In this document: positions 7,101 to 63,808 of the stretch, piece by piece | How the letters are laid out: every line of letters begins with the position of its first letter | How positions within the stretch are numbered: the stretch's first letter is position 1 | Source: an uncultured bacterium | GTDB taxonomy: Bacteria > Patescibacteriota > Saccharimonadia > UBA4664 | Direction: 5' to 3' | Assembly (NCBI GenBank): GCA_963720265.1 | Contig: CAVRET010000002.1 | Coordinates: 663,601-727,600, forward strand | DNA length: 64,000 bases | Notes under the pieces: model-generated | The model's database searches: none | What the model was told of the DNA's origin: nothing | What the model saw: the letters and a program-made list of their open reading frames with translations, nothing else | Position numbers and translations under genes: made by a program

Positions 7101-7588
7101 ATCGCACTACCCACAAAACCCTCAAAAAGGTCCACGACGACCTCGAAGGGATGCGCTTTAACACTTACGTCAGTGCACTTATGGAATGCGTCAATTACCT
7201 GAACTCGCCGGCGAACCTGACTGCGATTCGCAACCACCCGGCTCTCTCCGAGCGCACCATCCGGACGCTCATTCTCATGCTCGCCCCGGCCGCACCGCAC
7301 CTGGCCGAAGAGCTTTGGCACGAGCTGGGCGAGCAGGGGAGCGTGCATACTGCACCATGGCCCAAATACGACCCCGAGCTCATCAAGGACGACCTCATCA
7401 CCATAGTGGTACAGATAAACGGAAAGGTTCGTGGCCAAACCACGGCCCCGGCCGACGTCACCGAGGCCGACCTCATCAATTTAGCCTCAATCGAGCCCAA
7501 GGTGGCCGCTCTGCTTGATGGCAAAAAGGTTGCAAATACTATTGTCGTGCCCCGCCGCCTCGTCAATTTCGTCGTTAAGGAGAGCTAG
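4190..7588 (+). CDS. leuS: leucyl-tRNA synthetase with an insertion of about 335 aa containing two Nudix domains
   Basis: HAGH (HIGH variant), the editing-domain blocks TTRPDTLAGATFLVLAPEHP and GTGAIMAVPAHDERDF, YRLRDWIFSRQHYWGEPIP, KMSKSLGN, and the anticodon-binding region are all present. Two perfect Nudix boxes, GGIHDGETPTETAVRELTEETGY and [24 protein letters not shown], lie between the editing domain and SGQFDGL. Confidence 0.9.
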   Translation: MKQYDPKTIEPKWQQIWADTNLYAAIDGDSRPKYYMLTEFPYPSAAGLHAGHVREYTIGDVMARHKRMLGHNVLYPMGWDAFGLPTENYAIKTGQKPKDVTATNTAIFRRQMQLLGLGFDWSREVNTSDPAYYKWTQWLFLQFFKHGLAYQAEIPINWCPFEKTGLANEEVINGVHERCGTPVEKKLLKQWMLKITAYADRLVDGLKTVDYPPRIADQQINWIGRSEGANIDFSVAGEKITVYTTRPDTLAGATFLVLAPEHPAVAKITRPQQKDRVEQYVKKTQSETDLNRQEENRPKTGVFTGVHTINPITKASMPVWIADYVLAGYGTGAIMAVPAHDERDFAFAKAMNKQLGYDVEPTYVDIESTPRPDQPFENREVAQAIVKHPTEQKYLLLELKAWDDKSYSYPMGGIHDGETPTETAVRELTEETGYDHIRHTRPISAPYFAEFYHQHKHVNRRAHVHSVFIELADLHQSGIAQHERDLHGLHWLTGDEVASKVLGTGTKKLMLDFLAGRATPAIDIIPVIDPVLIRDDARDLKEFKRHRKIVAVVENAAGEILTINWGPKYGGRLTIGGTIEGDEAPEITAMREVAEETGYHDLEVLETGAETMHYKYYAFSKREGHDVTVRFIHTRLKSDKRKAQDLNESEKNKFTVEWATRNQAEREIVEPLHRYAINKFIFGHVHAGDGVLVNSGQFDGLQNDEARRAIVQWLFDQGLGRHATTYRLRDWIFSRQHYWGEPIPIIHCPKDGAVPVPDDQLPVKLPEVEHYEPTDTGESPLAAISEFVNTTCPKCGGPAKRETDTMPNWAGSSWYYLRYMDPHNDHEFAGRANMDYWGMVDIYLGGMEHTTLHLLYSRFWHQFFYDQGLVPTPEPYAARRGQGIVLASDGRKMSKSLGNVVNPTDIVERYGADTFRLYIMFMAPYDETTPWSDERLNGVSRFLYRVWALVQQLREPQAEIAPNGIIETEVDRTTHKTLKKVHDDLEGMRFNTYVSALMECVNYLNSPANLTAIRNHPALSERTIRTLILMLAPAAPHLAEELWHELGEQGSVHTAPWPKYDPELIKDDLITIVVQINGKVRGQTTAPADVTEADLINLASIEPKVAALLDGKKVANTIVVPRRLVNFVVKES

Positions 7589-26331: not shown

Positions 26332-28008
26332 ATGATGCTCATGGTATTGATCAGTCTCGCGGCGGGAGTACTCACGGTTCTAGCGCCGTGCGTTTTGCCC
26401 CTTCTGCCGGTTATCATCGGCGGATCGCTGGCCGCCGGCCAGCACAACCGCAGTCGGCCCTATATTATTGCCGGGTCGCTTGTTATTGCAGTTGTCGGCT
26501 TCACGCTCATCTTAAAAGTCTCCACGCTGGCCGCCGGTATCTCGGAGCAAATCCTAGACATTGCGAGCGGCGGCTTACTCGTGCTCTTGGGCTTCGCCTT
26601 ATCCGCACCTGAGTTGTGGGCAAAAATGGCCGCGCTAACGAAACTGGAGGCAGTATCAAACCAACTGCTGTCCACAGCCGGGAACGACCGGCGACCCTTC
26701 ATCGGTGCTGCGTTAATCGGCCTTGCCCTCGGGCCAGTCTTCGCCAGCTGCAGCCCAACGTACGCCTTCATCCTGGCGTCGGTCTTGCCCAAAGATCTGC
26801 CAGTCGGCACGCTCGATTTGTTTGCGTACGCCGTTGGGCTCGCTGCCGCCCTGCTGGCAGTGGCCCTGGCCGGCAAACGGCTTACCTCGCGGCTTGGCTG
26901 GGCGTTAGATCCCAACGGCTGGTTTAGGCGGACGTTTGGTGCTGTGCTCATAGTCGTGGGCCTGGTGGTCGCATTTGGGCTCGCTTCCACTGTTGAGGTG
27001 TGGGTGGCCGCTCACTTGCCATTCGACGAGGCCAAGCTCGAGCAGCAGCTTTTGAGCACCCAAACTGGCACCAAGACCGATAAGCAAGCCGGTTCCGCGC
27101 TCAACGTCGAACCGATACCAGCCCCGCAGTTCACCGGGCTCACCAATTGGATCAACAGCCCGCCGCTCACTCTATCGAACCTGCGCGGCCAAGTAGTTCT
27201 CGTGGACTTTTGGACATACTCTTGCATCAACTGTATCCGAACGCTGCCGTATCTTGAGAAATGGTACCAAACGTACCACAACCAAGGCTTAGTTATAATA
27301 GGCGTGAATACGCCCGAGTTCGCATTTGAGCACGTGCCCGGGAATGTGGCAGCAGCGGTCCGCAAATTTGGCATTGCCTACCCTGTGGCGCTTGATAACA
27401 ATTACGCCACCTGGGATGCGTACAATAACGACTCGTGGCCTGCCGATTATCTCATTGACCGCTCCGGCGACATTCGTTATGTCGCGACCGGCGAAGGCGA
27501 CTACCCAACGACGGAACGAGCGATCCAAGAATTACTTGGGATCAACCACAGCCTTGTCACGCCGACTTCCAATGTACCGGTGGCGGCCGACCAAACCCCA
27601 GAAACGTATTTTGGCACCAACCGTGCCCAGAGCTATGTCGGATCCCCCTCTCTCGTCAACGGGTCGGCTAATTTTAGCCCAACTCAGCCATCGCCTGATC
27701 AGTGGACCTTAAGCGGCAAGTGGAAAATCTCCGGCGAGAGTATCACAAGTGAGGGGCCGGGCTCGCAGCTGGTCGCGTCCGTTGTTGCAAAAGACGTCTA
27801 CCTGGTCGCAAGCGGCGCCGGCAGTGTTCATGTCGGCCTCGATCCCGGCAGTAGCAGCGACTTTGGTAATGATGCGCCCGAGGGATTGGTGGCGGTGGCG
27901 GCCTCGCGTCTTTACCACATCGTGTCACGACCACAATCCGCTAGCATCACCGTGACGCTCACCGTGCCTACCGGCGTAACTCTGTACACCTTTACGTTTG
28001 GCAGCTAG
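26332..28008 (+). CDS. CcdA/DsbD-like transmembrane electron transporter fused to a TlpA/ResA-type thioredoxin domain, plus a C-terminal extension
   Basis: The N-terminus has a Cys pair in a TM helix (LAPCVLPLLP). Then comes a thioredoxin CxxC (WTYSCINC) in a TlpA-like context, followed by an uncharacterised region of about 150 aa. Confidence 0.7.
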   Translation: MMLMVLISLAAGVLTVLAPCVLPLLPVIIGGSLAAGQHNRSRPYIIAGSLVIAVVGFTLILKVSTLAAGISEQILDIASGGLLVLLGFALSAPELWAKMAALTKLEAVSNQLLSTAGNDRRPFIGAALIGLALGPVFASCSPTYAFILASVLPKDLPVGTLDLFAYAVGLAAALLAVALAGKRLTSRLGWALDPNGWFRRTFGAVLIVVGLVVAFGLASTVEVWVAAHLPFDEAKLEQQLLSTQTGTKTDKQAGSALNVEPIPAPQFTGLTNWINSPPLTLSNLRGQVVLVDFWTYSCINCIRTLPYLEKWYQTYHNQGLVIIGVNTPEFAFEHVPGNVAAAVRKFGIAYPVALDNNYATWDAYNNDSWPADYLIDRSGDIRYVATGEGDYPTTERAIQELLGINHSLVTPTSNVPVAADQTPETYFGTNRAQSYVGSPSLVNGSANFSPTQPSPDQWTLSGKWKISGESITSEGPGSQLVASVVAKDVYLVASGAGSVHVGLDPGSSSDFGNDAPEGLVAVAASRLYHIVSRPQSASITVTLTVPTGVTLYTFTFGS

Positions 28009-44015: not shown

Positions 44016-45413
44016 TCACGAGTCCGTATCACGTATCGGCGCCACCAGCGGTTCTCGTTCAAACAGCTCGGATAGAAAATTATTGGTCCACCAAAACACG
44101 TCTTGTTGTCGCACATTCGCCAGCAGCGAATTCCAGCGCCGGCCCTGCTCCGGCAGTCGCATATGCAAAGCGTGCCTGAGGCCGCGCGCAATATCATCGA
44201 CATTAGCAGGGTTAACCAAGACGGCATCGTGCAGTTGCCAGGCCGCACCAATGGTTTTGCTAAGGACCACGGCGCCCAGTTTCGCTCCGCGAGCCGCAAT
44301 ATATTCTTTTACCATCAAATTCATCCCGTCCATGATGGGCGTCACCAAAAACACATCCGCCATCCGATACAAGGCATTAAGCTCTTCAAAGCCATGGCTA
44401 CGGTATTCCAGTGACACGGGAGTAATGCCCAGCCGCTTCCGGTAGCCTGCGTTGATTCGCGCCACTTCCTGTTCAATCTGATCCTTCAACAACCGGTATT
44501 CCGACAAATCCTCGCGCGACGGCGCCACCACCATGTGATACTCCAACTTGCCGGCCGGGTAATGTTCCAGCACCTTTTCCACACCTTGCAGCTGCTGGAT
44601 AATCCCCTTTGTGTAATCAAGCCGCGACGCCGATAAGATCAATCTCGCATCCGCCGATTTGAGTAGTCGTAGTTGCTTGAGGTAGGCGATAACTTCACGC
44701 TGCCTGCCGGCTGATCGGTACGTCTTGTAATCAATACCAATCGGGAACGCCTTCACTGTAGCGCCTGGCTTAGGTTCAATGCCGGTGGCCTTGAGGCAGT
44801 CATTAAAATTACGCACATCACGTTCGGTCTGAAAGCCCAGCACATCAACCACACTCAAACTTTCCAACAACGGCCGGTGGTGCTTCCATTGCAAAAACAC
44901 CGCCGCTGTCGGAAACGGGGTGTGCAGGAAAAAGCCGATGCGGTTGCGAATTCCACGTTCACGCAAAACCCGCGGCAGCAATTGTAAATGGTAATCATGG
45001 ATCCAAATCACATCGCCGGCCTGGAGGTTGGCCTCCACGGCATTGGCAAATAAGTTGATGACCTCCCGGGTCGCTTTCCAATCCGCTTCTTGGTCGAGCT
45101 TGGCCGGCTTAATGCCGTGGAAAAGCGGCCACAACACACCGTTGGACAACCGGTTGTAATAGCGTGTAAGTTGGCGTTTCGAAATCAACACTGGTATCAA
45201 AAGATCTGGGAAGTTGAGCTGCAACAACTGCTGTTTGGTGAGCCGTTGCCAGGTGCCCGGCCACCCAATCCACAGCATTGGATGGCTACTCATGACCGAA
45301 CCCAAAGCTGTCGCTAAACCGCCGAGGCTGCGTTTGAGCACGAGTTCCCCGGCTTCATGCGTAATGTTAACCGGCAAGCGGTTTGACACTACTACTATCC
45401 GTGTTTTTGACAT
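44016..45413 (-). CDS. otsA: alpha,alpha-trehalose-phosphate synthase
   Basis: Glycosyltransferase family 20 blocks: IVVVSNRLP, WIHDYHLQLLP, GFFLHTPFP. Confidence 0.85.
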   Translation of the reverse strand: MSKTRIVVVSNRLPVNITHEAGELVLKRSLGGLATALGSVMSSHPMLWIGWPGTWQRLTKQQLLQLNFPDLLIPVLISKRQLTRYYNRLSNGVLWPLFHGIKPAKLDQEADWKATREVINLFANAVEANLQAGDVIWIHDYHLQLLPRVLRERGIRNRIGFFLHTPFPTAAVFLQWKHHRPLLESLSVVDVLGFQTERDVRNFNDCLKATGIEPKPGATVKAFPIGIDYKTYRSAGRQREVIAYLKQLRLLKSADARLILSASRLDYTKGIIQQLQGVEKVLEHYPAGKLEYHMVVAPSREDLSEYRLLKDQIEQEVARINAGYRKRLGITPVSLEYRSHGFEELNALYRMADVFLVTPIMDGMNLMVKEYIAARGAKLGAVVLSKTIGAAWQLHDAVLVNPANVDDIARGLRHALHMRLPEQGRRWNSLLANVRQQDVFWWTNNFLSELFEREPLVAPIRDTDS

Positions 45414-45449
45414 ATACTTATCAGCCTCAACACATTACCGTGGGCAAGT

Positions 45450-46211
45450 ATGGACAGCAGACTAACAGGGCACTATGTACAAAGTCACAAGCGGTTACTG
45501 TTGTTTGACTACGATGGCACCTTGGTCAATTTTCACCGCGTCCCAGAAAAGGCTACGCCAACGGAAAGACTAATGCAAGTACTGCGACGGTTGTGCGCCG
45601 ACCCTCACAACCAAGTGGTAATTATTTCCGGCCGCGATCGGCATTTTCTCGATCGTTATTTTGCCAAACTACCGCTCGCACTAACGGCCGAGCACGGTTA
45701 CCTGGTGCGTGATAAAGTCGGAGTCTGGCGTGAAACTAAAACCCAGCCGCCACACTGGAAGCCAATAATTCGTCGTGAACTGGACGAGGCTGCTCGCGAC
45801 CTGCCCGGTGTCAAGCTCGAAGAAAAAGCCTCATCGCTGGTTTGGCATTTCGACGGCGCGACTGACGAAGCGGCCTGTGCGGTCGTGGCGGCCGATTTGC
45901 GTGAACGACTTAGGCCCCAGCTCGACCAGCTCGGTCTTGTCGCCGAAAGCGGCCGTAAAATCCTCGAGGTCCGGATTGCAGGAGTAACGAAAGGTCATAT
46001 TGCGCGCCGGTGGCTTGACGCTGCGCCCTGGGATTTTGTGCTGGCCGCCGGCGATGACACAACCGACGAAACCATGTTTGCAGAACTACCACCCGGCGCC
46101 TTTAGCATCAAAGTGAGGCCCGGCGCCACCGCTGCCCGCTATCACCTCGCCGACGCTGCAGCCATGCTCGTCCTGCTCGAAGGCCTCACGGCATCGGCGC
46201 CAACCCCATAG
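45450..46211 (+). CDS. otsB: trehalose-6-phosphate phosphatase
   Basis: HAD motif LLLFDYDGTLV. It is adjacent to and divergent from otsA. Confidence 0.75.
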   Translation: MDSRLTGHYVQSHKRLLLFDYDGTLVNFHRVPEKATPTERLMQVLRRLCADPHNQVVIISGRDRHFLDRYFAKLPLALTAEHGYLVRDKVGVWRETKTQPPHWKPIIRRELDEAARDLPGVKLEEKASSLVWHFDGATDEAACAVVAADLRERLRPQLDQLGLVAESGRKILEVRIAGVTKGHIARRWLDAAPWDFVLAAGDDTTDETMFAELPPGAFSIKVRPGATAARYHLADAAAMLVLLEGLTASAPTP

Positions 46212-53593: not shown

Positions 53594-55204
53594 ATGGACA
53601 CAAATTGGTTTGCCAACGCCATAATCTATGGAGTTAATATTCCCACGTTCCAAGACTCGAACGGCGACGGCATCGGCGACATTGCCGGCCTCACCAGCCG
53701 CCTCGATTATTTGGCCGATCTGGGGGTGACGTGTCTGTGGCTGCTGCCCTTTTATCCCAGCCCACGCCGCGACAACGGGTATGATGTGTCGCACTACTAC
53801 GGAGTCGACCCGCGGCTCGGCACGCTCGATGATGTCCGCGAGCTGGCCGCACAGGCCAAGGCCCGCGGCATTCGCCTCATGACCGACTTAGTGGTTCACC
53901 ACACCTCGGATCGCCACCCCTGGTTTGAAGCTGCCAAATCCGACCGCCACTCGTCCTATCGTGATTATTACATCTGGAGTGACGAGCGCCCGGAAGAAGA
54001 GGAAGAGCCAAACTTTCCAGAGGCGGAATCGGGCATGTGGCGCTACGAGCCGATTTCACGCTCGTATTATCATCATGCGTTCTATCATTTCCAGCCTGAC
54101 CTTAACTTCGCCAACACGCGCGTCCAGGAGGAGGTATTGCGCATCATGGACTTTTGGCTGGCACTCGGTGTATCCGCTTTCCGGCTCGATGCCGCCCCGC
54201 TTATCATCGGTCGCAAAGGCTTGCCCGGCACCGAGGTTGAGCCGAGCCAATTTTGGAACCGCATCAGGGCCTGGCTCAGCCATCGCAACCCCCAGGCCGC
54301 ACTCATGGCCGAGGCCAACATTCCAATGGAGGAGATCAACAAGTATGTGAACGACGGCCGTGGCATTCATATGTTTCTCAACTTCTGGACCAATCAGACC
54401 ATTATCTATGCTCTCGCCGCCGGCCGTGCCGATCCCGTCATCGGCACGCTCAAGGAGCTACCGATACTTCCGAGTGGAGCGCAATACGTTACATTCTTGC
54501 GCAACCTGGACGAGCTCAACATCGCACGCCTGAGCGAAAGCGAGCAGCAGCTGGTATACAAAAAGTTCGGTCCCAGGAAAAATATGCAAATCTACCATCG
54601 CGGCATCAGACGCCGGCTCGCACCCATGCTCAAGGGCAATGGGCGTCGGCTGCGGCTCGCCTTTAGTCTCATGTTCGCCATGCCCGGGGCGCCCATGATC
54701 GTCTACGGCGACGAGATCGGTATGGGTGAAAATTTGATGCTCACCGAGCGCGATAGCGTGCGGACGCCCATGCAATGGAACAGCTCAGATCAGGCCGGCT
54801 TTTCTCCTGCTGAGTCCAGTCACATGATTCACCGCATGGTCACCAACCCGGGCTACCATTTTCGTACCGTGAACGTCGCCGACCAGCAAGCCGACCCCAA
54901 CTCACTCTGGCACTTTATGAAGCGGCTCATTGCCACCCGCAAAGATTGCCCGGCCATCGGCGAAGGTACATTTTCGCAGCTCGACTGCGGTGACCCGGCC
55001 GTCTTAGCGATAGGCTACACCAACAAGCACCGGTTGGTTGTAGTGCACAATTTGTCCGCCCAGTCAAAAACAGTCTCGCTTCCAATCGGGATCAAGCTCC
55101 AGGCACTAACTGAAATCTTGAGCGATCGGCCGTACGGGCCGCTCCATGCCGGTAAACTTAAGCTTGGGCCATACGGCTTTCGGTGGCTGTATGGCGAGCG
55201 CTAG
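53594..55204 (+). CDS. GH13 alpha-amylase-family enzyme, trehalose synthase (TreS)-like
   Basis: FQDSNGDGIGDIAGLTSRLDYLADLGVTCLWLLP, DLVVHHTSDRHPWF, and GFRLDAA. Confidence 0.75.
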   Translation: MDTNWFANAIIYGVNIPTFQDSNGDGIGDIAGLTSRLDYLADLGVTCLWLLPFYPSPRRDNGYDVSHYYGVDPRLGTLDDVRELAAQAKARGIRLMTDLVVHHTSDRHPWFEAAKSDRHSSYRDYYIWSDERPEEEEEPNFPEAESGMWRYEPISRSYYHHAFYHFQPDLNFANTRVQEEVLRIMDFWLALGVSAFRLDAAPLIIGRKGLPGTEVEPSQFWNRIRAWLSHRNPQAALMAEANIPMEEINKYVNDGRGIHMFLNFWTNQTIIYALAAGRADPVIGTLKELPILPSGAQYVTFLRNLDELNIARLSESEQQLVYKKFGPRKNMQIYHRGIRRRLAPMLKGNGRRLRLAFSLMFAMPGAPMIVYGDEIGMGENLMLTERDSVRTPMQWNSSDQAGFSPAESSHMIHRMVTNPGYHFRTVNVADQQADPNSLWHFMKRLIATRKDCPAIGEGTFSQLDCGDPAVLAIGYTNKHRLVVVHNLSAQSKTVSLPIGIKLQALTEILSDRPYGPLHAGKLKLGPYGFRWLYGER

Positions 55205-56861
55205 GCATGAGCATCACTATTTTCGCGGCCGGGTTGTATACCAGATCTATCCGCGCAGTTTCCAGGATTCGAACGGCGATGGCATTGGTGATCTGGCCGG
55301 CATCATAAGCCGGCTGGACTATCTTAATGACGGTCACCCGGCCGCCGCCACCTCGCTCGGCGTCAACATGATTTGGCTGTCGCCGTTTTATCCCTCGCCT
55401 ATGGCCGATTTCGGCTATGATGTGTCGGATTATTGCAATGTCGATCCCATTTTCGGCACGCTGGCCGACTTCAAACTGCTGGTGAAAGAATCTCACCGTC
55501 GCGGTATAAAACTCATGATCGACTTCGTGCCCGACCACTCATCCAATCAGCATCCATGGTTTCTCGAATCGCGTAAAAGCCGTAAAAACCCCCGCCGCCA
55601 CTGGTACTATTGGCGTGATCCTGCGCCGGGTGGTGGGCCGCCCAACAATTGGCTCAGCGTCTTCGGCGGTTCGGCCTGGGAGCTTGATCCAACAACTGGC
55701 CAATACTACCTCCACAGCTTTCTCAAGGAGCAGCCGGATCTCAATTGGGAAAACTCAGGAATGCGTGCCGCCATGCTCGAGGCCATCCGTTTTTGGCTTA
55801 AATTGGGCGTAGACGGCATCCGCGTGGACGCGGTTGATTGGATGGCCAAAGATCTCAAATTCCGTGACAACCCGGTAAATCCCAATTACCGCGCAGGCAT
55901 CGGCGACCCCTATCACCGATTTCTCCACCGTTACAGCCAAAACGGCCCCCAGCTCTACCATTATTTGCGCGCTATGGCCGAGGTTGTGCGAGAGTCGCCC
56001 TACGGCTTCATGGTTACCGAAACCTACCCCGAGCGCCGTGACATCGTGCAAGAGTACCGCAAGATCTACCGCAATTACCTTGCCAGCGTCTCGGCGCCGT
56101 TCAACTTCGAACTCCTGCACTTGCCCTGGTCGGCCGCCGCCTTTAAACAGTTCATTGATCGCTATCAAGCCTCACTCGAGCATGATTATGTGCCCATCTA
56201 CGTGCTCGGCAACCACGACACCGCGCGCCTGGCCAGCCGCATCGGGCCGGCTGCGGCCCGCACCGCCGCTACCATGCTCTTAACCTTGCCCGGCGCAGCC
56301 TTCATTTACTACGGCGAAGAACTCGGCCTACAAAACGTTGCGATTCCGCCCGAGCGCGTCCAGGATCCGTTTGAAAAGCGCGTGCCGGACCTTGGCCTCG
56401 GCCGCGATCCGGAACGCACGCCGATGCCGTGGACGGGTAGTATCCACGCCGGGTTCTCGACCGCCCAGCCGTGGTTGCCGCTTGGTCCCGGTTACCGTAC
56501 CCATAACGTTGCAAGCCAGCTCAGCGACCCAGCCTCGAGCCTACACCTGTACCAAAAGCTCATTCATTTGCGCAACACGTCGCCGATTCTGCAGTATGGT
56601 GTCTATCGTCCGCTCGACACTCATCACTGCGACGTCTTTGGCTACGTGCGTGAACACAACGGCTTCGAGCTGGCAATCGTGCTCAACTTCTCCGGCCGCA
56701 CCGCTGCCATTACCACCGACCTCGGCCCCGGGCTACTCATGTACTCGTCGCAATTAGCTCGCGAAGGCGTGCTCATCAACCTCGCGCGCACCACGATTCC
56801 ACCATATGAAGGCTATGTCGTGGCGCTTGAACGGCGCGATCAAGCGGGCAACCAGTCATGA
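55191..56861 (+). CDS. GH13 alpha-glucosidase/oligo-1,6-glucosidase-like enzyme
   Basis: FQDSNGDGIGDLAGIISRLDYL, DFVPDHSSNQHPWF, and GVDGIRVDAV. The start ATG 55191 overlaps the upstream gene's end by 14 nt. Confidence 0.75.
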   Translation: MASARHEHHYFRGRVVYQIYPRSFQDSNGDGIGDLAGIISRLDYLNDGHPAAATSLGVNMIWLSPFYPSPMADFGYDVSDYCNVDPIFGTLADFKLLVKESHRRGIKLMIDFVPDHSSNQHPWFLESRKSRKNPRRHWYYWRDPAPGGGPPNNWLSVFGGSAWELDPTTGQYYLHSFLKEQPDLNWENSGMRAAMLEAIRFWLKLGVDGIRVDAVDWMAKDLKFRDNPVNPNYRAGIGDPYHRFLHRYSQNGPQLYHYLRAMAEVVRESPYGFMVTETYPERRDIVQEYRKIYRNYLASVSAPFNFELLHLPWSAAAFKQFIDRYQASLEHDYVPIYVLGNHDTARLASRIGPAAARTAATMLLTLPGAAFIYYGEELGLQNVAIPPERVQDPFEKRVPDLGLGRDPERTPMPWTGSIHAGFSTAQPWLPLGPGYRTHNVASQLSDPASSLHLYQKLIHLRNTSPILQYGVYRPLDTHHCDVFGYVREHNGFELAIVLNFSGRTAAITTDLGPGLLMYSSQLAREGVLINLARTTIPPYEGYVVALERRDQAGNQS

Positions 56862-56887: not shown

Positions 56888-59356
56888 CTAAACTGACATC
56901 CGCCCAAGCGCAGCCAGCACATCGACCCCTGCTCCGAGCACGCCTTGCCACAAATCGCCAACCTTGTCGAGACGCTCCGGCATGGTTCTGAGAGTAAACG
57001 CTTTCGGATCGAGCCGCTCATTCACCTCGCCCCAATCAAGCGGCGTCGACACCGTCGCCCCGGGCACCGGCCGCACGCAATAGGCCACCGCCATGGTCTG
57101 CCCGTGCCCGTTTTGCAAGTAGTCCAGGTAAATTTTGCCCTTGCGCTTATCTGGACTGCGCTCAACGCTCGTCAGCTCGGGCAATCGGCTGTGCAGCAAA
57201 TTCATAATAATCTCGGCCAACTGTTTGCTCTGCTCATACGTATAATTGGCACCCAGCGGAATGCAAACGTGCAGACCCGTCTTGCCGCTTGTCTTGGGAT
57301 AGGCCGGAATCTCATATTCATCAAGCAGCTTATGGGCCGCCATGGCTACTTTCACCACTGCATCAAACCCGCTGGTTTTGGCATCAATATCGAGTAGGCA
57401 ATAATCCGGCCGGCCGAGATTCTGCGTGCACGAGTGCCATGGGTTGAGCTCGATGCAGCCTAAATTAACTAAATATTCCAGAACATCGCGGTCATTGGCC
57501 ACCACCCAACGAATGTCCTTGTTACTCGATTCTGAGTATATTGGCACCGTCTTCACCCAATGCGGCGCCCCTTCCACGTCCTTTTGGAAAAAATGCTGGC
57601 CGCTAATGCCACCGGGATAACGGTTGAGTGATTCGGGTCGGTCTTTGAGATAGGGCAGTAACACCTCACTCACACGATCGTAATAATCCAGCAAATCGCC
57701 CTTGGTAATGCCCTCATCAGGCCAAAATACTTTGTCGCGGTGAGTAATGTGTGCTCGGCTATCCGGCTGATCAGTCTTCGCGCCGGATTTGTATTCCGCA
57801 GCGGCCTGCGGCAATTCGCGTCGCACGTCACGAGCCGACTTGTCTTCGCGCCAACCCACAAAAATCGGTTGTCGCATATGATCGTCCTGCGTCCAGCCGG
57901 CAAAACTCACCTCCGCCACCAATTCTGGCTTCACCCAATGTACTGGCGCGTTGGTTCGAAAGCTTGTCGCAAACGGCGAGGCTTTGCGCTCGAGCGGCTT
58001 CAGCCGGGCATGCGCCTCGGCGAGCGACTGTTCTGTAAACCCGCCACCGGTATGCCCAATGTAGCGCAGCTGGCCGTCCTCGCCGTACAACCCGAGCACT
58101 AGTGCGCCCAGGTCATGCCGGCTGCCCTTCGGCTCAGTGTAGCCGCCTACCACAGCCTCTTGTCGGGCATGGGTCTTGATTTTGAGCCAATCCCGGCTGC
58201 GTTTGCCATCCTGATATGTGCTTACGGCGGATTTAGCCATAATGCCCTCCAGATTCTGCGCCTGAGCCAATGCAAACAGCCTTTTCCCAACGCCGGCCAC
58301 ATGATCGCTCAGGCGCACCCGCGTAAACGGCGCCACTAGCTGCGCCAGCACCTCCTTGCGCCGCGTAAGCGGCCAACCGCGTAAATCGTGCCCGTAGGCA
58401 TACGGCAAATCGAACACATAATACACGAGCGTGCCGCTGCCGGTCCGCTGCCAGTCCTGCAACGCGCCGAAATCCGACCGGCCGGCCTCGTCCACCACGA
58501 CCATTTCACCGTCCAAGATGGCATCCACGACCAGGCCGGACAGCTCCTTGGCCACTAACTGGTACCGCTCTGTGTAATCCTGATCACCGCGAGTGATAAG
58601 CCGCACTCGGCCACCTCCCACATGCGCCATAATCCGGTAGCCGTCCCATTTCACCTCATACAACCACTCCGGATCGTCAAACGGCGTTTCCCTGAGTGTC
58701 GCCAGCATTGGCGCCAACTCCGCCGGCGCCTGAGCCCTGGGTGCATCGTCAAAATCCTGCACAACCGGCTTCCCAGCCGCAATCTCCTCCAGCGTCCGGC
58801 CTGTGGCTGCACTCCGGTTACGCTGCGTCACATCCTCGTCCCGCGCCCACTGGTCTTTCTCGGCTTTAATCAGTAGCCAAGCATTCTCCTCGGCGTCCTT
58901 CATTTTCACCAACGCAAATTCGCCGTTCAACTTCTGCCCGTGCAAAATAAACGTCAAATGCCCGGCATGCACACCGGCCCGGGCTTTTTTATCATCCTCC
59001 TCGCGGTCGCCGGTAGCGCCGAGTGGCTCGTACGTACCTTCATCCCATACCATGACCGTACCACCGCCGTAATTGCCTTTGGGGATCGTACCCTCAAACG
59101 TCCGGTAATCGAGCGGATGATCCTCGACCATCATGGCAAGTCGCTTGTCCTCGGGCCTCAGTGACGGGCCTTTGGGCACGGCCCAGCTCTTGAGTGCGCC
59201 GCCCATCTCCAGTCGAAAATCATAATGCAACTGCGACGCGTCATGCTTTTGCACCACAAACCGCAGGCCGCCGCGCTCATCGCTCTGATCATCGCCGCCG
59301 GTCGGCTCGGGCGTCGTGTCAAACGTACGTTTCGACTGGTACTTGTCCAAACTCAC
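56888..59356 (-). CDS. ligD: multidomain ATP-dependent DNA ligase LigD (3'-phosphoesterase - ligase - polymerase/primase)
   Basis: The N-terminal PE domain has VVQKHDASQLHYDFRLE. The middle ligase domain has the EVKWDGYR motif I. The C-terminal Pol domain has SGKTGLHVCIPL. Confidence 0.9.
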   Translation of the reverse strand: MSLDKYQSKRTFDTTPEPTGGDDQSDERGGLRFVVQKHDASQLHYDFRLEMGGALKSWAVPKGPSLRPEDKRLAMMVEDHPLDYRTFEGTIPKGNYGGGTVMVWDEGTYEPLGATGDREEDDKKARAGVHAGHLTFILHGQKLNGEFALVKMKDAEENAWLLIKAEKDQWARDEDVTQRNRSAATGRTLEEIAAGKPVVQDFDDAPRAQAPAELAPMLATLRETPFDDPEWLYEVKWDGYRIMAHVGGGRVRLITRGDQDYTERYQLVAKELSGLVVDAILDGEMVVVDEAGRSDFGALQDWQRTGSGTLVYYVFDLPYAYGHDLRGWPLTRRKEVLAQLVAPFTRVRLSDHVAGVGKRLFALAQAQNLEGIMAKSAVSTYQDGKRSRDWLKIKTHARQEAVVGGYTEPKGSRHDLGALVLGLYGEDGQLRYIGHTGGGFTEQSLAEAHARLKPLERKASPFATSFRTNAPVHWVKPELVAEVSFAGWTQDDHMRQPIFVGWREDKSARDVRRELPQAAAEYKSGAKTDQPDSRAHITHRDKVFWPDEGITKGDLLDYYDRVSEVLLPYLKDRPESLNRYPGGISGQHFFQKDVEGAPHWVKTVPIYSESSNKDIRWVVANDRDVLEYLVNLGCIELNPWHSCTQNLGRPDYCLLDIDAKTSGFDAVVKVAMAAHKLLDEYEIPAYPKTSGKTGLHVCIPLGANYTYEQSKQLAEIIMNLLHSRLPELTSVERSPDKRKGKIYLDYLQNGHGQTMAVAYCVRPVPGATVSTPLDWGEVNERLDPKAFTLRTMPERLDKVGDLWQGVLGAGVDVLAALGRMSV

Positions 59357-60135
59357 TTGACCTGCGCCTCCAAGCTCGCTTTAAGTGCGGCCATCAGATC
59401 GGCCGGAGCTTTGGCCGTCGCTTCGTGCGGCGCTGCTTTCTCCTTACCCTTCGCCTTAGCCTCGATCCGTGCCTGCAGCTCCTCAGTATAGGTATCGTGA
59501 AAATCCTCAGGGATAAACGGTTGCGTTTGCTGATCGACCAGCTCAACGGCCAGGTCGAGTTCACGCTCATTCGCTACATCTTTTCCCGGTAACGTAAGGC
59601 TGCCCGGGGTACGCAAATCAGCCGGGAACCGCATTTGGTTTAGCACGAGCACCTGGCCCACAGTCTTCAAAATCGCCAAATGTTCCCGTTCGCGCAGCAC
59701 AAACGTTGCCACCGCCAGTCGATTCCGCTTACGCAAAGCCTCGCGCAAAAGCGCATATGCTTTCTCGCCGCCCTTGCCCGGCTCCAGATAGTATGGCCGT
59801 TCCAAATACCGCACATCAATCTGCTGCTCGTCGCAAAACTCCACAATATCAATCGTCGTCGTTTTCTTTACGTCCGCGGCTTCGAAGTCCTCGTCCGTAA
59901 TTCGCACAAATTCGCCTTTCTCGTATTCGTAACCCTTAACGATCTCGCTAAACGGCACCTCTTTGTCCTCGGCTTTGCAGATCTTGGCATAGCGAATGGG
60001 GGACAGGTCTTTTTTGTGTAACATGTGCAAATCAATCCCGTCGCGCGTCTCCGCGCCGGAATAGAGCTTCACCGGAATATTAATAAGCCCAAACGAGATT
60101 GCCCCAGACCAGATCGCGCGCATTGCATCCTCCAA
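59353..60135 (-). CDS. ku: Ku protein (non-homologous end joining)
   Basis: MRAIWSGAISFGLINIPVKLY is the canonical Ku N-terminus. Its 4-nt overlap with ligD suggests operon organisation. Confidence 0.9.
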   Translation of the reverse strand: MEDAMRAIWSGAISFGLINIPVKLYSGAETRDGIDLHMLHKKDLSPIRYAKICKAEDKEVPFSEIVKGYEYEKGEFVRITDEDFEAADVKKTTTIDIVEFCDEQQIDVRYLERPYYLEPGKGGEKAYALLREALRKRNRLAVATFVLREREHLAILKTVGQVLVLNQMRFPADLRTPGSLTLPGKDVANERELDLAVELVDQQTQPFIPEDFHDTYTEELQARIEAKAKGKEKAAPHEATAKAPADLMAALKASLEAQVK

Positions 60136-60229: not shown

Positions 60230-60421
60230 ATGTCTCACTCCAATCGAGTAGTTCAAACCGGCGGCTCCGGCGCCGTCTATGGCCTCGGACTTGTTGGCGC
60301 CCTCATATACTATATTCATTTTCATTCCGGCAGCCTCTGGCTGGTGATTTTGGCCGTCATCAAAGCCATTCTTTGGCCCGCGTTCCTCGTATACCAGCTG
60401 CTGTTGTTCCTGCACATGTAA
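60230..60421 (+). CDS. small two-TM membrane protein (hypothetical)
   Basis: A 63-aa ORF with an AGGGAGG SD at the right spacing. Confidence 0.45.
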   Translation: MSHSNRVVQTGGSGAVYGLGLVGALIYYIHFHSGSLWLVILAVIKAILWPAFLVYQLLLFLHM

Positions 60422-60481
60422 TTGCACTACGCTTATGCTTAAAAATCTGTTATAGTCAGGGCAACATCTAAGGGACTCATT

Positions 60482-61012
60482 ATGAAACTTCGCACTTCAC
60501 AAGCCGGCAACATTGGTTTAGAAGTCGTGTTAGCGGTCGTGGTCTTGGTCTTGGCCGTCGGCGCCTACTGGACGTACCAGCAGCACATGAAGTCGCAATC
60601 GGCTTCCAGCACCACAGCTGCTGCACTTTCGGCCAACGCTAAAACCGCGGCTGCAAACGCCAAGCAATCGCAGGCTGCCCTAACAGACGTCAAAGCCTTC
60701 TACATGGCCTGGCTGGCAGATCCGATGCCGACAGCCTCCAGCATGGAGCAGCAAGGCTACCTAACCTCAACTGCGGTCTCAGCTGCAGCTGCCGCCAAGA
60801 CATATGACCTCTTTACCTGCAACCAGTCCGCGCTCGCGTTTGACAAGTACAAGTTCTCCAACCCGATTGCGGACGGCAACACCGCCACGATGTTAGCCAG
60901 TGCCGTTTACTCCGGTTCCACAACCACAACCATTCACCTAGGCCTCAAGATGGTTGGCAGCAAATGGCAGATCAACAGCGTTTCCTGTCCCGACATGACC
61001 ACATCAAAGTAG
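60482..61012 (+). CDS. hypothetical secreted protein with an N-terminal TM anchor
   Basis: A 176-aa ORF with an N-terminal hydrophobic helix and an Ala/Ser/Thr-rich extracellular region. Confidence 0.5.
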   Translation: MKLRTSQAGNIGLEVVLAVVVLVLAVGAYWTYQQHMKSQSASSTTAAALSANAKTAAANAKQSQAALTDVKAFYMAWLADPMPTASSMEQQGYLTSTAVSAAAAAKTYDLFTCNQSALAFDKYKFSNPIADGNTATMLASAVYSGSTTTTIHLGLKMVGSKWQINSVSCPDMTTSK

Positions 61013-61148
61013 CTTACACAGCCAAAAAATTAAACCTATGAGCTAAGCACCAATGCTTGGCTCATAGTTTGTTTGATAGCATAAAGTATTGACAAAGATA
61101 TAAAAATAATATATAATATCTCGCATTCCATTAAGGAGTGTGTAGATA

Positions 61149-61595
61149 ATGTCTATTAAAGCTTACTCAACTGCCCGCTATACGACCCAGGTGGCCGTTG
61201 CGGCAGTTGCCCTCACGGTTGCGGGCACCGGCATCGCCTTAGCCTGCTCAAGTCCGCACCCGACCCCGGTGGTCAAGCATTGCAACCCGACGCCGAAGCC
61301 TACGCCTAAGCCGGTTTGCCCGCCCAAACCCACTCCAACACCAAAACCGACGAGCAAACCCTGCCCGCCTAAAGAAACCCCTACACCAACCCCGACCCCG
61401 ACAGTAATCCCTACCCCCACACCCACTCCGTCGGTAACACCGACCCCGACGCCCACGCCTCAGGTGCTCAGCGCCTCCACGCAGGCTACAACCCTGCCGG
61501 ATACCGGTGCCAGCTTCGGCGGTTCCACCATTGGCCTTGGCTCAATGATTACCGCCGGTGTGGCATACGCCCGGTCGCGTAAAAACCGAAAGTAA
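61149..61595 (+). CDS. LPXTG-anchored Pro/Thr-rich cell-surface protein
   Basis: A signal-like N-terminus, PTPKPT repeats, then LPDTG, a hydrophobic segment and RSRKNRK — a sortase sorting signal. An AGGAG SD is present. Confidence 0.7.
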   Translation: MSIKAYSTARYTTQVAVAAVALTVAGTGIALACSSPHPTPVVKHCNPTPKPTPKPVCPPKPTPTPKPTSKPCPPKETPTPTPTPTVIPTPTPTPSVTPTPTPTPQVLSASTQATTLPDTGASFGGSTIGLGSMITAGVAYARSRKNRK

Positions 61596-61616
61596 CCAAC
61601 CCTAAACCAATCAAAA

Positions 61617-61647
61617 AGACTCCCGCTCGGGAGTCTTTTTGTGCGCC
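61617..61647. terminator. rho-independent (bidirectional) terminator
   Basis: AAAAAGACTCCCG-CTC-GGGAGTCTTTTT is a perfect GC-rich hairpin flanked by an A-run and a T-run. It sits between convergent genes. Confidence 0.8.
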
Positions 61648-62715
61648 TCAATTAGCCGTCAGTGAGAAGTTGTTAACCGCGAAATTAACCGACTCGTTAT
61701 TGGTCGAGACCAGCTCGGCGCCGTAATCTATCTGGCCGAGTGTTGCATTTGAGCCCAACCACCCCTTGGTTTTGATGACATAGTTGTAGAAGTCGAGAAT
61801 ATTCACTGTGCCGCTCGTGGTATTATTTTCGGCTACGAACGCGATGTAGCAGCCGCTATCGCAGCTCGTGCCGTCGCTATAGACGTCGTACGTCTGGCCG
61901 CCGTCGCTAAACGTTCCCCGTAAGCTTCCGCCCGGCGTTTGGCCGTAGTTATCGTTCCAGATCATGATCTCAGTAGAATTATTATCAGCCACGCCGTTCA
62001 GCCACATGTCATAGGCAAATTCGTAAATGCCCACATGCGGACCAGTTTCAGCATAGCTGCTCGAAATCGTGTGGAACGAGCTAATGAGCGGGCTCGAGTC
62101 AAAATCTTCGTGCACATTGGGATAGGTTTTAACCGCCCCGTCGCCATTATTGTTATTCATCTTCGCGGTGACGTACCAATTGTCGAAATCGCAGGCGTAC
62201 AAGGTCTGCGCTACCGAGTAACCCGAGGCGTTCCAGGTGTCGTTGGTGACGTAATAGTTTCCGATTGTGACGCCGCTTTGGGCGTTGTTGGGGTCGAACG
62301 GAATCGTGTACTGCGGGTTGCTGCAGGTCTGGCTGACCGGAGTCGAGCTCGGTGTGGGCGTTGTAGTGGGGGTAGGGGTTGTTATCGGCGTGCTGCTCGG
62401 GGTTGGTGTGGGGGTCGCCGCCGTTTGCCCCCAGTGTGACAAGAGAATCGACAAGTCAAACACATTGACCGTACCGTCACCGTTAAGATCAGCCGTAGCG
62501 TTGTTCGTACCCCAGTCACTGAGCATGATTGAGAGGTCAAACACATTTACCACCCCGTCATGATTCAAGTCACCCACCAGCGGGCCGGCCGCAAAGGTAT
62601 GGAAAATCACCAGCCCAAACACCACCACCGCAAGTACCACCAACGACGCCTGGGGATAGTGGTCAAATTTTTTCGGCAACCGAATCATGCGATGAGCTCT
62701 AGTCTCCCTCCGCAC
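61648..62715 (-). CDS. secreted protein with an N-terminal dockerin-type repeat pair and a C-terminal GH12-like domain
   Basis: TM/signal N-terminus, then DLNHDGVVNVFDLSIML ... DLNGDGTVNVFDLSILL (dockerin-like Ca-binding repeats), a TPTP linker, and an EIMIW motif as in the GH12 nucleophile block. Confidence 0.55.
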   Translation of the reverse strand: MRRETRAHRMIRLPKKFDHYPQASLVVLAVVVFGLVIFHTFAAGPLVGDLNHDGVVNVFDLSIMLSDWGTNNATADLNGDGTVNVFDLSILLSHWGQTAATPTPTPSSTPITTPTPTTTPTPSSTPVSQTCSNPQYTIPFDPNNAQSGVTIGNYYVTNDTWNASGYSVAQTLYACDFDNWYVTAKMNNNNGDGAVKTYPNVHEDFDSSPLISSFHTISSSYAETGPHVGIYEFAYDMWLNGVADNNSTEIMIWNDNYGQTPGGSLRGTFSDGGQTYDVYSDGTSCDSGCYIAFVAENNTTSGTVNILDFYNYVIKTKGWLGSNATLGQIDYGAELVSTNNESVNFAVNNFSLTAN

Positions 62716-63808
62716 AAGATATCGGTGCGCATGTTAGGGAGAAGTTGTTGAGGTCAAACCTCTGAGTCCCGTCCGTGTATGCGACCTCCACGCCATACTC
62801 GACGGCGCTCAGCTCCGCGGGATTAGCACCACCGGCCTTACACGCCGCTGTAGAAGTGCAATCGAACCAGGCCGGATTATTGGCAATAACCCAGTTATAG
62901 AGGGCCAGCAGGTCTACCGTACCTGAGGCTGTCTGAGTCGTTGGTGCAAAGCCGACGTACCCACAATTGCCGCCGCCGGGATTGCCAAACGTCCAGATAT
63001 CCCAGGTATTGCCGCCAATGCTCACGTTCGTATCTACAAAGGAGGCGCCACTCAGGTCATTCTCCCACTGGTTCCAGACCATCATTTCCTCACAGTTGCC
63101 GTTATTGAGCCCGTCAATCCACGTGTCGTAGGCTTCATCATAACCAAGGCTGGTGCCCGCCGGCGCTGACATCCCGAACGTGCTCGTAACATTCGTTAAG
63201 GACGAGATAACCGGACCGCAGTCGGGCATGTTACAGGCGTACGGTGCCGGTGCCAGATCAACTTGCGTGTCGGGATAGGTTTCAACTTGGCCGCCGTCGT
63301 TCGGTTGGTTGGATTCGACGTACCAGCTTTTGGAGTTGCAGACATATATGGTTTGCGGGCCGTGGCTGCCACTCCAAGCATCGTTACCGACCTGATAGCC
63401 GTTGGTATCGGTCCAGCCGAATTCGGCGTCGGAGCTGCTGGTGACAGGGTTAGTGCACGTCTGTGCCACTGGGCTCGAGCTTGGTGTCGGCGTGGGCGTC
63501 GACGTTGGTGTGGGGGTCGGCGTTGGGGTTGAGCTCGTCTGGCCCCAGTGCGACAGCAGAATTGAAAGATCATACACGTTCACCGTACCGTCGCCGTTAA
63601 GATCGGCCGTAGCATTGCTGGTACCCCAATCGCTCAACATGATCGAGAGGTCATACACGTTGACCACCCCGTCATTATTAAGATCGCCCACGAGCGACGA
63701 CGCGAAACTGTGCACAATCACCAGTCCCAACGCCACAGCCACAAGCACGATTGCCGCTGCCTGCGGATATTGAATGGTTCGTTTATGCAACCGAATAAGG
63801 TGTTTCAC
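62699..63808 (-). CDS. paralogous secreted dockerin-repeat / GH12-like protein
   Basis: Same architecture as 61648..62715: DLNNDGVVNVYDLSIML ... DLNGDGTVNVYDLSILL, a TPTP linker, and EEMMVW. Confidence 0.55.
   Translation of the reverse strand: MKHLIRLHKRTIQYPQAAAIVLVAVALGLVIVHSFASSLVGDLNNDGVVNVYDLSIMLSDWGTSNATADLNGDGTVNVYDLSILLSHWGQTSSTPTPTPTPTSTPTPTPSSSPVAQTCTNPVTSSSDAEFGWTDTNGYQVGNDAWSGSHGPQTIYVCNSKSWYVESNQPNDGGQVETYPDTQVDLAPAPYACNMPDCGPVISSLTNVTSTFGMSAPAGTSLGYDEAYDTWIDGLNNGNCEEMMVWNQWENDLSGASFVDTNVSIGGNTWDIWTFGNPGGGNCGYVGFAPTTQTASGTVDLLALYNWVIANNPAWFDCTSTAACKAGGANPAELSAVEYGVEVAYTDGTQRFDLNNFSLTCAPISCAEGD

Follow-up and report, generated by a model that had tools for sequence, protein, structure and literature searches.

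Two adjacent minus-strand genes, g2 and g1, lie near the end of a 64 kb window of DNA (the whole stretch analysed, ~6% of a 1,108,292-bp contig), and by sequence and predicted structure their products are fusions of a type-I-like dockerin with a catalytic domain of glycoside hydrolase family 12 (GH12), carrying the GH12 beta-jelly-roll and its conserved pair of catalytic glutamates. The explanation that we regard as probable, if not strongly so, is that the two proteins are secreted, dockerin-tagged enzymes that dock on a cohesin protein at the cell surface. On this explanation, g2 and g1 would be Sec-secreted, disulfide-containing, retaining endo-beta-1,4-glucanases, and after signal-peptide cleavage the mature enzyme would start with a compact, Ca2+-binding dockerin joined by a flexible Thr/Pro stalk to the catalytic domain. 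The same cassette tags many other polysaccharide-degrading enzymes of the lineage, and docking of the dockerin onto a cell-surface cohesin protein would form a minimal cellulosome-like display, which would keep a very small cell's enzymes and their products at its surface. An earlier sequence-only reading of this DNA had described two minus-strand genes of one architecture, and the leader, dockerin, Thr/Pro linker and GH12 domain were each found in both (Table 1).

The catalytic domains were assessed by profile search, residue conservation and structure prediction. The GH12 profile PF01670 matched g1 at 72.4 bits (cutoff 27) and covered positions 2-206 of 207, so the Pfam scan proposed in the sequence-only reading bore out the family for g1. 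For g2 it did not, which speaks against a GH12 assignment of that gene: the match was partial (55-205, E 7.6e-5) and reached 23.4 bits. The nearest relatives of g2 also lie at or below the cutoff (P0121: 26.7 bits; P0125, P0128 and P0133: no match), g2 is homologous to g1 along the whole catalytic domain (E 3e-33), and NCBIfam PRK06215 matches it in part (2e-28). We conclude that g2 belongs to a divergent GH12 clade often missed by Pfam.

The E-M-W motif that had been taken for the GH12 nucleophile block was upheld as TEIMIW in g1 and EEMMVW in g2, with its glutamate aligned to the nucleophile of the solved enzyme NopAA, in which Glu117 is the nucleophile and Glu216 the acid/base (PMC7303141). 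E240 and E325 of g1 were invariant across the 12- and 65-homologue alignments (A1/A2), and the AYD-W block and the Met following the nucleophile were also invariant in the homologue alignments. In sequence searches of the PDB, g1 matched NopAA (6SDU, 8.5e-13) and BlXG12 (2JEM, 5e-9), followed by cellulosomal dockerins. AlphaFold (AF2) models of g1 and g2 were built on the 65- and 51-sequence alignments, with a mean predicted local distance difference test score (pLDDT) of 87.1 and 82.7, respectively; most of each catalytic domain exceeded 90, and the Thr/Pro linkers fell below 50. Foldseek searches against the PDB returned GH12 enzymes as all of the best 50 matches for both models (best E: g1, 3.7e-19; g2, 1.3e-20), with TM(target) of 0.75-0.86 against solved GH12 enzymes. 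Since both models have the GH12 jelly-roll and both catalytic glutamates are present, the outcome of a fold other than GH12, which the sequence-only reading had held open for the C-terminal domain, did not arise.

By analogy, xyloglucan or mixed-linkage/amorphous beta-glucan would be the most likely substrates of g1 and g2, because their nearest solved relatives are xyloglucanases. The domains might instead cut microbial glucans, such as a cellulose-like exopolysaccharide of a host or biofilm or the cell's own beta-glucan, as part of an epibiotic lifestyle. Saccharibacteria are epibionts (PMC10633639), and on one contig (L086, 5650-11107) the gene for the dockerin-tagged, GH12-like protein P0133 lies directly past a GH16 gene and 1.1 kb from a cellulose-synthase-like GT2 gene (1071 aa), which would suit this alternative. 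However, the relatives in question act on plant xyloglucan, sister proteins with the same N-terminal cassette include such typical plant-wall-degrading domains as mannanase (GH26) and pectate-lyase-like ones, and the source sample of L086 is labelled soil metagenome; a microbial target seems improbable to us.

The dockerin of g1 reads DLNHDGVVNVFDLSIMLSDWGT-NNATA-DLNGDGTVNVFDLSILLSHWGQ, with Y in place of F in g2, and consists of two 22-residue repeats separated by a 5-residue spacer. Each repeat is a 12-residue EF-hand-like Ca loop (D1, N3, D5, N9, D12) followed by a helix, and the g1 model places helices at residues 49-57 and 76-84, one per loop, with pLDDT >90. Pfam Dockerin_1 (PF00404) was above its gathering cutoff of 22.9 in both proteins (g1: 32.4 bits; g2: 33.3 bits), and NCBIfam dockerin_GC scored 30.7 in g1 and 27.1 in g2 (cutoff 29). 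The two dockerin type I repeats and the Thr/Pro linker described earlier are thus present in both proteins. The two segments are near-symmetrical (17/22 identical), the dockerins of g1 and g2 are ~90% identical in amino acids, and their four Ca loops are the only ones across the six frames of the window. Both dockerins are predicted to bind Ca2+ on the strength of these loop residues.

The leader, dockerin and linker form a cassette that recurs on other enzymes. A homologue search with g2 returned many proteins that matched its first ~90 residues alone, at 55-85% identity, and that share the same leader (M..KKF..YPQA...), dockerin and TPTP linker. The domains carried behind this N-terminus include GH5, GH16, GH26, GH28, GH114, DUF4038, Glyco_hydro_cc, parallel beta-helix and polysaccharide-lyase domains, as well as esterase, metallophosphatase, CAP and subtilisin domains. 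A 22+(4-8)+22 architecture was found in 55 fetched proteins, N-terminal in 42 and C-terminal in 13, and the spacer had five residues in 52/55. Dockerin positions that are not Ca ligands were almost invariant ([VI]10, F11, L13, S14, L17, S18, W20 and G21). An exhaustive HMMER search with the 90-residue cassette matched 19,370 representatives at a threshold of E<=1e-3, of which 917 passed E<=1e-10, and in about one third of the best 150 matches the cassette was a single N-terminal stretch that included the leader.

Both proteins begin with the N-terminal hydrophobic anchor or signal noted in the sequence-only reading: a basic n-region followed by a hydrophobic stretch of ~20 residues, with a transmembrane-like hydropathy of 3.1-3.2. 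A conserved (A/S/T/G/V)-x-A site lies 3-5 residues ahead of the first Ca loop, and in 12/12 aligned homologues Ala at -1 was invariant and the residue at -3 was small (A/S/T/G/V). We infer that this is a signal-peptidase I site. Cys counts are even (4 in g1, 10 in g2) and kept in relatives, which fits extracellular disulfides, and secretion with cleavage of the leader is predicted for both proteins. The segment could also be an uncleaved signal anchor, so that the enzymes are held by their own transmembrane helix and the dockerin, at the membrane face, recruits other proteins or links the enzymes mutually. The length and hydropathy of the h-region would allow this, AF2 models the segment as one helix, and many CPR (candidate phyla radiation) surface proteins, small cohesins included, are anchored via a single N-terminal helix. 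However, the small residue at -3 and the invariant Ala stand directly before the dockerin in all 12 homologues, and the leader is otherwise weakly conserved (dN 0.39 between g1 and g2), so that permanent tethering appears rather improbable.

The host is probably a member of Saccharimonadia (CPR), probably from soil, an assignment based on the small genome (~1.1 Mb in a single contig), named homologues and synteny in place of a marker phylogeny. The named homologues are mostly Candidatus Saccharimonadia/Saccharimonadales, and the best dockerin matches among GTDB representatives are Saccharibacteria metagenome-assembled genomes (MAGs). The window proteins that were looked up all map to the one 1,108,292-bp contig, and the conserved ones are singletons at 90% identity. 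The S16-KH-TrmD-beta-lactamase gene order of the window recurs on a 228,664-bp metagenome contig (JGI), whose cohesin neighbourhood matches that of a named Saccharimonadia MAG. The gene content had been described as actinobacterial-type; with Saccharimonadia/Saccharibacteria as the closest named relatives, this description is doubtful.

Cohesins were found in related MAGs. One MAG protein (L020) starts with a signal peptide, carries a Pfam-significant cohesin and fn3 repeats, and has a dockerin at its C-terminus; domains homologous to its N-domain occur in three Saccharimonadales proteins. A profile of L020-type domains retrieved 130 proteins, mostly single-cohesin proteins of 145-240 aa; PF00963 matched many of them, and one bears the name 'cohesin domain-containing protein [Candidatus Saccharimonadia bacterium]'. 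PF00963 was above its cutoff in L020 (62 and 35 bits), L021, L040, P0244, P0301, P0325 and P0342. The small cohesins carry either an N-terminal transmembrane anchor or a signal peptide together with an LVNTG-type wall anchor (P0342). The cohesin proteins encoded next to dockerin-enzyme genes (below) consist of a signal peptide, one or two cohesins, a T/P linker, an fn3/CarboxypepD_reg-like domain, a C-terminal transmembrane helix and a Pro-rich tail.

A hidden Markov model (HMM) was built from 120 cohesins of the clade and run on loci that had been fetched solely for the dockerin pattern. The results showed 20 open reading frame (ORF) hits, which, outside the cohesin-centred loci L084/L085, fell next to dockerin genes in 13 loci: 10/18 Saccharibacteria loci, a Wildermuthbacteria locus, one further MAG and a Limnocylindrales locus. 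None of the ~58 Planctomycetota or other loci obtained through this dockerin pattern gave a hit to the HMM. In L003, L004, L014, L021, L040 and L046, the cohesin gene starts at most a few bases from where the gene of a protein with a C-terminal dockerin ends, the proteins ahead of cohesin genes being GH5, GDSL-lipase, polysaccharide-deacetylase and other proteins. In L005, L008, L020 and L024, cohesins lie next to or within dockerin proteins. Several of the cohesins paired with C-terminal-dockerin enzymes were missed by Pfam and caught by the clade HMM. These results provide good genomic-context evidence for cohesin-dockerin pairing in Saccharibacteria/CPR lineages.

The N-terminal cassette and a cohesin also meet on the 228,664-bp contig, which encodes two proteins with the N-terminal cassette and one small member of the cohesin family, P0319, that matches the clade cohesin profile (E 8.7e-27) and not Pfam PF00963. 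The small, transmembrane-anchored cohesin genes of this contig and of L084/L085 (10001-10576) stand within a conserved cluster. This cluster holds a PKD-domain protein, five unannotated proteins of 250-380 aa, a 315-aa partner gene, a ~1530-aa Kelch beta-propeller protein and giant proteins (>2000 aa).

Several results weigh against docking in the genome of g1 and g2. No cohesin was detected in the window, either by Pfam on the neighbours and all secreted candidates or by the clade HMM on the six-frame ORFs, where the best match (E 0.088) was a transmembrane segment only; nor was one found in the closest syntenic loci (L001, L002 and L083) or in L086-L089. Adjacent cohesin/dockerin pairs in MAGs mostly involve C-terminal dockerins instead of the N-terminal cassette, and no dockerin motif lies within 20 kb of the small-cohesin genes in L084/L085. 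The sequence-only reading had held that dockerins imply a cohesin partner and had called for a cohesin search; the search came out negative for the window and positive for related Saccharibacteria/CPR MAG loci, in which cohesin genes adjoin dockerin-enzyme genes.

Two proteins encoded beside g1 were considered as cohesins and rejected: a 148-aa LPXTG protein, which is nearly all P/T low complexity with no globular domain, and a 176-aa protein, which has a weak prepilin-like N-terminus and no Pfam or PDB match. Their genes form part of a group at window 60230-61595 (+), convergent to g1, together with the gene of a 63-aa membrane protein. The 176-aa protein begins with a prepilin-like segment (G/NIGLE; weak NCBIfam match, E 0.088), and the 148-aa protein, made up almost wholly of Pro, Thr and Lys, ends in LPDTG, a transmembrane stretch and RSRKNRK (LPXTG model: 15.1 vs 15.9 bits). 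All three genes are syntenic with the GH12-dockerin gene in L001/L002, at 67-85% identity.

The missing cohesin in the window and in the closest syntenic loci would also agree with a dockerin-like module that has no cohesin partner in the genome and serves as a Ca2+-dependent stabilising or adhesion module, which would either bind glycans of the cell wall, a host cell or the substrate or have no specific ligand. Planctomycetota loci are rich in the same dockerin pattern and had no cohesin nearby, the 19,370 representatives with such modules include many multi-repeat proteins, and a cultured Saccharibacterium has an essential protein with a dockerin domain, for which host glycans were proposed as a speculative target (Wang et al. 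2023, PMC10633639). However, the non-ligand surface positions of the dockerin are almost invariant across unrelated enzymes and dN/dS is ~0.04, which together fit a shared protein partner, and in many CPR loci a cohesin gene is the direct neighbour of a dockerin gene. We judge a cohesin-independent module unlikely.

Docking of g1 and g2 on a surface cohesin thus stays the preferred explanation, and such a display system is plausible in their genome because dockerin-enzyme genes repeatedly precede membrane-anchored cohesin genes in Saccharibacteria/CPR MAGs. No multi-cohesin scaffoldin was found in the related loci examined, where proteins carry one cohesin (two in L020); the display would therefore be monovalent and not a large multi-enzyme scaffold. 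For the lineage as a whole, we tentatively suggest, as something short of probable, that soil Saccharimonadia and other CPR bacteria use a monovalent cellulosome-like display, in which the 22+5+22 dockerin tags a secretome of glycoside hydrolases, lyases and esterases, both GH12 proteins among them, and single-cohesin proteins fixed to the membrane or wall serve as anchors. With similar reserve, we suggest that in this display the dockerin often stands directly past the signal peptide and that the anchored cohesins are often encoded beside the enzyme genes.

Taken by themselves, g1 and g2 are ordinary: both are dockerin-bearing GH12 glucanases, and a homologue already has such a label in public annotation (P0002, 74% identical; JGI: 'glycosyl hydrolase family 12/dockerin type I repeat protein'). 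Their context is further evidence for a direct attack on plant or microbial beta-glucans by soil Saccharimonadia with small genomes. A more interesting lead than the gene pair is the clade-wide cohesin-dockerin display at the cell surface, which is apparently monovalent. If true, it would carry this mode of enzyme display beyond the cellulolytic Firmicutes into CPR and would offer very small dockerin/cohesin pairs as possible parts for protein assembly.

The divergence between g1 and g2 was assessed from shared nucleotide runs and from Nei-Gojobori (NG86) estimates. The genes had been called recent duplicates on account of long identical nucleotide runs in their repeat regions, and neither statement held. 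Exact matches between the genes reach at most 16 nt, in the Pro/Thr linker, and 13 nt in the dockerin; a 214-nt direct repeat pair, which takes in the dockerin and most of the linker, shows 75% identity, and under identical residues only about half of the third codon positions match. For the dockerin, the proportion of synonymous differences (pS) was 0.66, with a synonymous rate (dS) of ~1.6 and a nonsynonymous rate (dN) of 0.059 (dN/dS ~0.04); for the catalytic domain, pS was 0.74, dS ~3, near saturation, and dN 0.56. The catalytic domains are 34% identical, and each is closer to a dockerin-less relative that carries another N-terminal module (g1: 65% to P0004 of Saccharimonadia; g2: 82% to P0121). 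The related contigs L001 and L002 hold the g1-type gene only. Adjacency, the common architecture, the ~90% identity of the dockerins and the direct repeat might suggest that the genes arose recently by tandem duplication, perhaps with the 5' part subject to gene conversion, but the low identity of the repeat, the short exact runs, the dS values, the closer dockerin-less relatives and the single-gene contigs all argue against it. We rejected this scenario on exact-run lengths and NG86 dS, and regard it as very improbable. On these comparisons, g1 and g2 are best taken as old paralogues or as members of two GH12 lineages independently fused to one cassette, and the near-identity of the dockerins as a reflection of strong purifying selection.

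The layout of the gene pair is given in Table 1. The mechanically called g1 ORF (61648-62715) extends to a GTG at 62715; the ATG at 62688 appears the better-supported start (346 aa), because orthologues begin MIR... there and public assemblies hold the exact 346-aa product. The g2 start at 63808 lines up with the N-termini of its paralogue and orthologues, and a public gene call places it 20 codons downstream (349 aa). With the ATG at 62688, g1 begins 10 nt past the g2 stop codon, and a terminator-like hairpin stands between g1 and the convergent gene. This short gap and the hairpin past g1 suggest that g2 and g1 are transcribed as a unit. Upstream of g2, the minus strand showed no sigma-70-like promoter.

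Table 1. Coordinates in the window of g2, g1 and their predicted features
Feature	Position	Strand	Description
g2	62699..63808	(-)	369 aa, GTG start; signal peptide, dockerin, PT linker, divergent GH12 (ORF list and Pfam)
g2 predicted Sec signal peptide	63701..63808	(-)	aa 1-36; predicted cleavage SFA/SS
g2 dockerin	63539..63685	(-)	aa 42-90; 22+5+22 residues; AF2 pLDDT >90, two helices, each past a Ca loop
g2 Thr/Pro/Ser linker	63464..63538	(-)	pLDDT <50
g2 GH12-fold catalytic domain	62702..63463	(-)	10 Cys; Foldseek best 6sdu, E 1.3e-20, TM(target) 0.81
g2 Glu241 codon, predicted nucleophile (EEMMVW)	63086..63088	(-)	invariant in the 51-sequence alignment A3; aligns with g1 E240
g2 Glu341 codon, predicted acid/base (YGVE)	62786..62788	(-)	nearly invariant in the 51-sequence A3; aligns with g1 E325
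g1	61648..62688	(-)	346 aa, ATG start; signal peptide, dockerin, PT linker, GH12
g1 predicted signal peptide	62587..62688	(-)	aa 1-34; predicted cleavage TFA/AG
g1 dockerin	62425..62571	(-)	aa 40-88; pLDDT >90
g1 Thr/Pro/Ser linker	62332..62424	(-)	sequence and AF2 model
g1 GH12 catalytic domain	61651..62331	(-)	PF01670, 72.4 bits
g1 Glu240 codon, predicted nucleophile (TEIMIW)	61969..61971	(-)	aligns with the HEIMLW Glu of NopAA
g1 Glu325 codon, predicted acid/base (YGAE)	61714..61716	(-)	aligns with the YGVE Glu of NopAA
Intrinsic-terminator-like hairpin and T run	61612..61641	(-)	13-bp GC-rich stem, CAAAAAGACTCCCGAGCGGGAGTCTTTTTG; 7 nt past the g1 stop

Other features were observed elsewhere in the window, which has a GC content of ~55%. 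The segment 20001-26000 is lower (0.48-0.52 vs 0.54-0.59 elsewhere) and may be acquired DNA; it holds a Peptidase_C39-like/BtrH_N protein and several ORFs without a family match. A 1132-aa leucyl-tRNA synthetase ORF at 4190-7588 (+) contains internal NUDIX matches (PF00293, E 1.1e-25, two stretches, ~residues 544-676), flanked by the editing domain and by the C-terminal catalytic/anticodon-binding parts; such an insertion or fusion is unusual. At 26332-28008 (+) lies a DsbD_TM/AhpC-TSA/thioredoxin fusion, which also occurs in L088 (14234-15907) near a related dockerin-GH12-like gene; judged from its domains, it has a possible extracytoplasmic thiol-redox function, relevant to Cys-rich secreted enzymes. 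Genes for a trehalose-6-phosphate synthase (GT20) and phosphatase are found at 44016-46211 and 53594-56861, with two adjacent GH13 alpha-amylase-family genes nearby, and sugar-type major facilitator superfamily transporters and a YHYH protein stand close to them, forming a glucan/trehalose metabolism neighbourhood upstream of the GH12 pair. Ku and a three-domain LigD (phosphoesterase, ligase and primase-polymerase) are encoded at 56888-60135 (-), a non-homologous end-joining pair in a ~1.1 Mb genome.

We compared g1 and g2 with known systems at the level of catalytic domain, dockerin and assembly. NopAA/GunA of Sinorhizobium fredii (6SDU) and XG12 of B. licheniformis (2JEM) have the same GH12 beta-jelly-roll (Foldseek E 1e-18 to 1e-20, TM(target) ~0.8), and their motifs AYD-W, E-[IM]-M-[IV]-W and YG-x-E recur in g1 and g2 with the catalytic glutamates aligned, at 22-28% identity. 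They differ in context: NopAA acts as a type III effector and BlXG12 lacks a dockerin, whereas the GH12 domains of g1 and g2 follow a predicted Sec leader, an N-terminal dockerin and a PT stalk, and g2 has extra Cys-rich loops.

The dockerins resemble the type I dockerins of clostridial cellulosomes (2Y3N; C. thermocellum CelS, 1DAQ), in which a 22-residue segment is likewise duplicated, with a helix after each D-x-N-x-D-G-x-V-N-x-x-D loop. The best solved relative of the g1 dockerin is that of Cel48 of P. cellulosolvens (Pseudobacteroides cellulosolvens; 2Y3N, chain 2y3n_B; E 1.4e-7), with the Ca-loop residues aligned. In contrast, the spacer of 2Y3N has 11 residues against 5 in g1 (6 extra in the alignment), which leaves no room in g1 for a middle helix of the 2Y3N type. 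Clostridial dockerins are usually C-terminal, whereas those of g1 and g2 are N-terminal, and each helix of the g1/g2-type dockerin ends in a conserved S-x-W-G motif, unlike clostridial type I dockerins. The near-symmetry of the two segments is also a trait of dockerins with a dual binding mode.

The closest precedent by lineage is Ca. Teamsevenus rhizospherense, for which a 'simple, two-subunit cellulosome' was mentioned (Starr et al. 2018, PMC6031116). Like the lineage here, it is a small-genome soil Saccharibacterium with many carbohydrate-active enzymes (CAZymes) and a claimed cohesin/dockerin-type attachment; the claim is one annotation-based sentence without module analysis, and the likeness to g1 and g2 is by description only. 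Full-text literature searches found no analysis of cohesin-dockerin systems in Saccharibacteria/CPR, and in the literature searched this single annotation-level sentence is the only mention of a stripped-down cohesin-dockerin surface display in Saccharimonadia. Clostridial and ruminococcal cellulosomes rely on a multi-cohesin scaffoldin, whereas the CPR cohesin proteins carry one cohesin, at most two, and no CBM3-type scaffoldin was seen; the genome here is ~1.1 Mb. Two traits are common to the clostridial/ruminococcal assemblies and the clade: one dockerin type spread across many CAZyme families, as with this cassette, and cohesins anchored at the cell surface, in the clade by transmembrane or LPXTG-like anchors.

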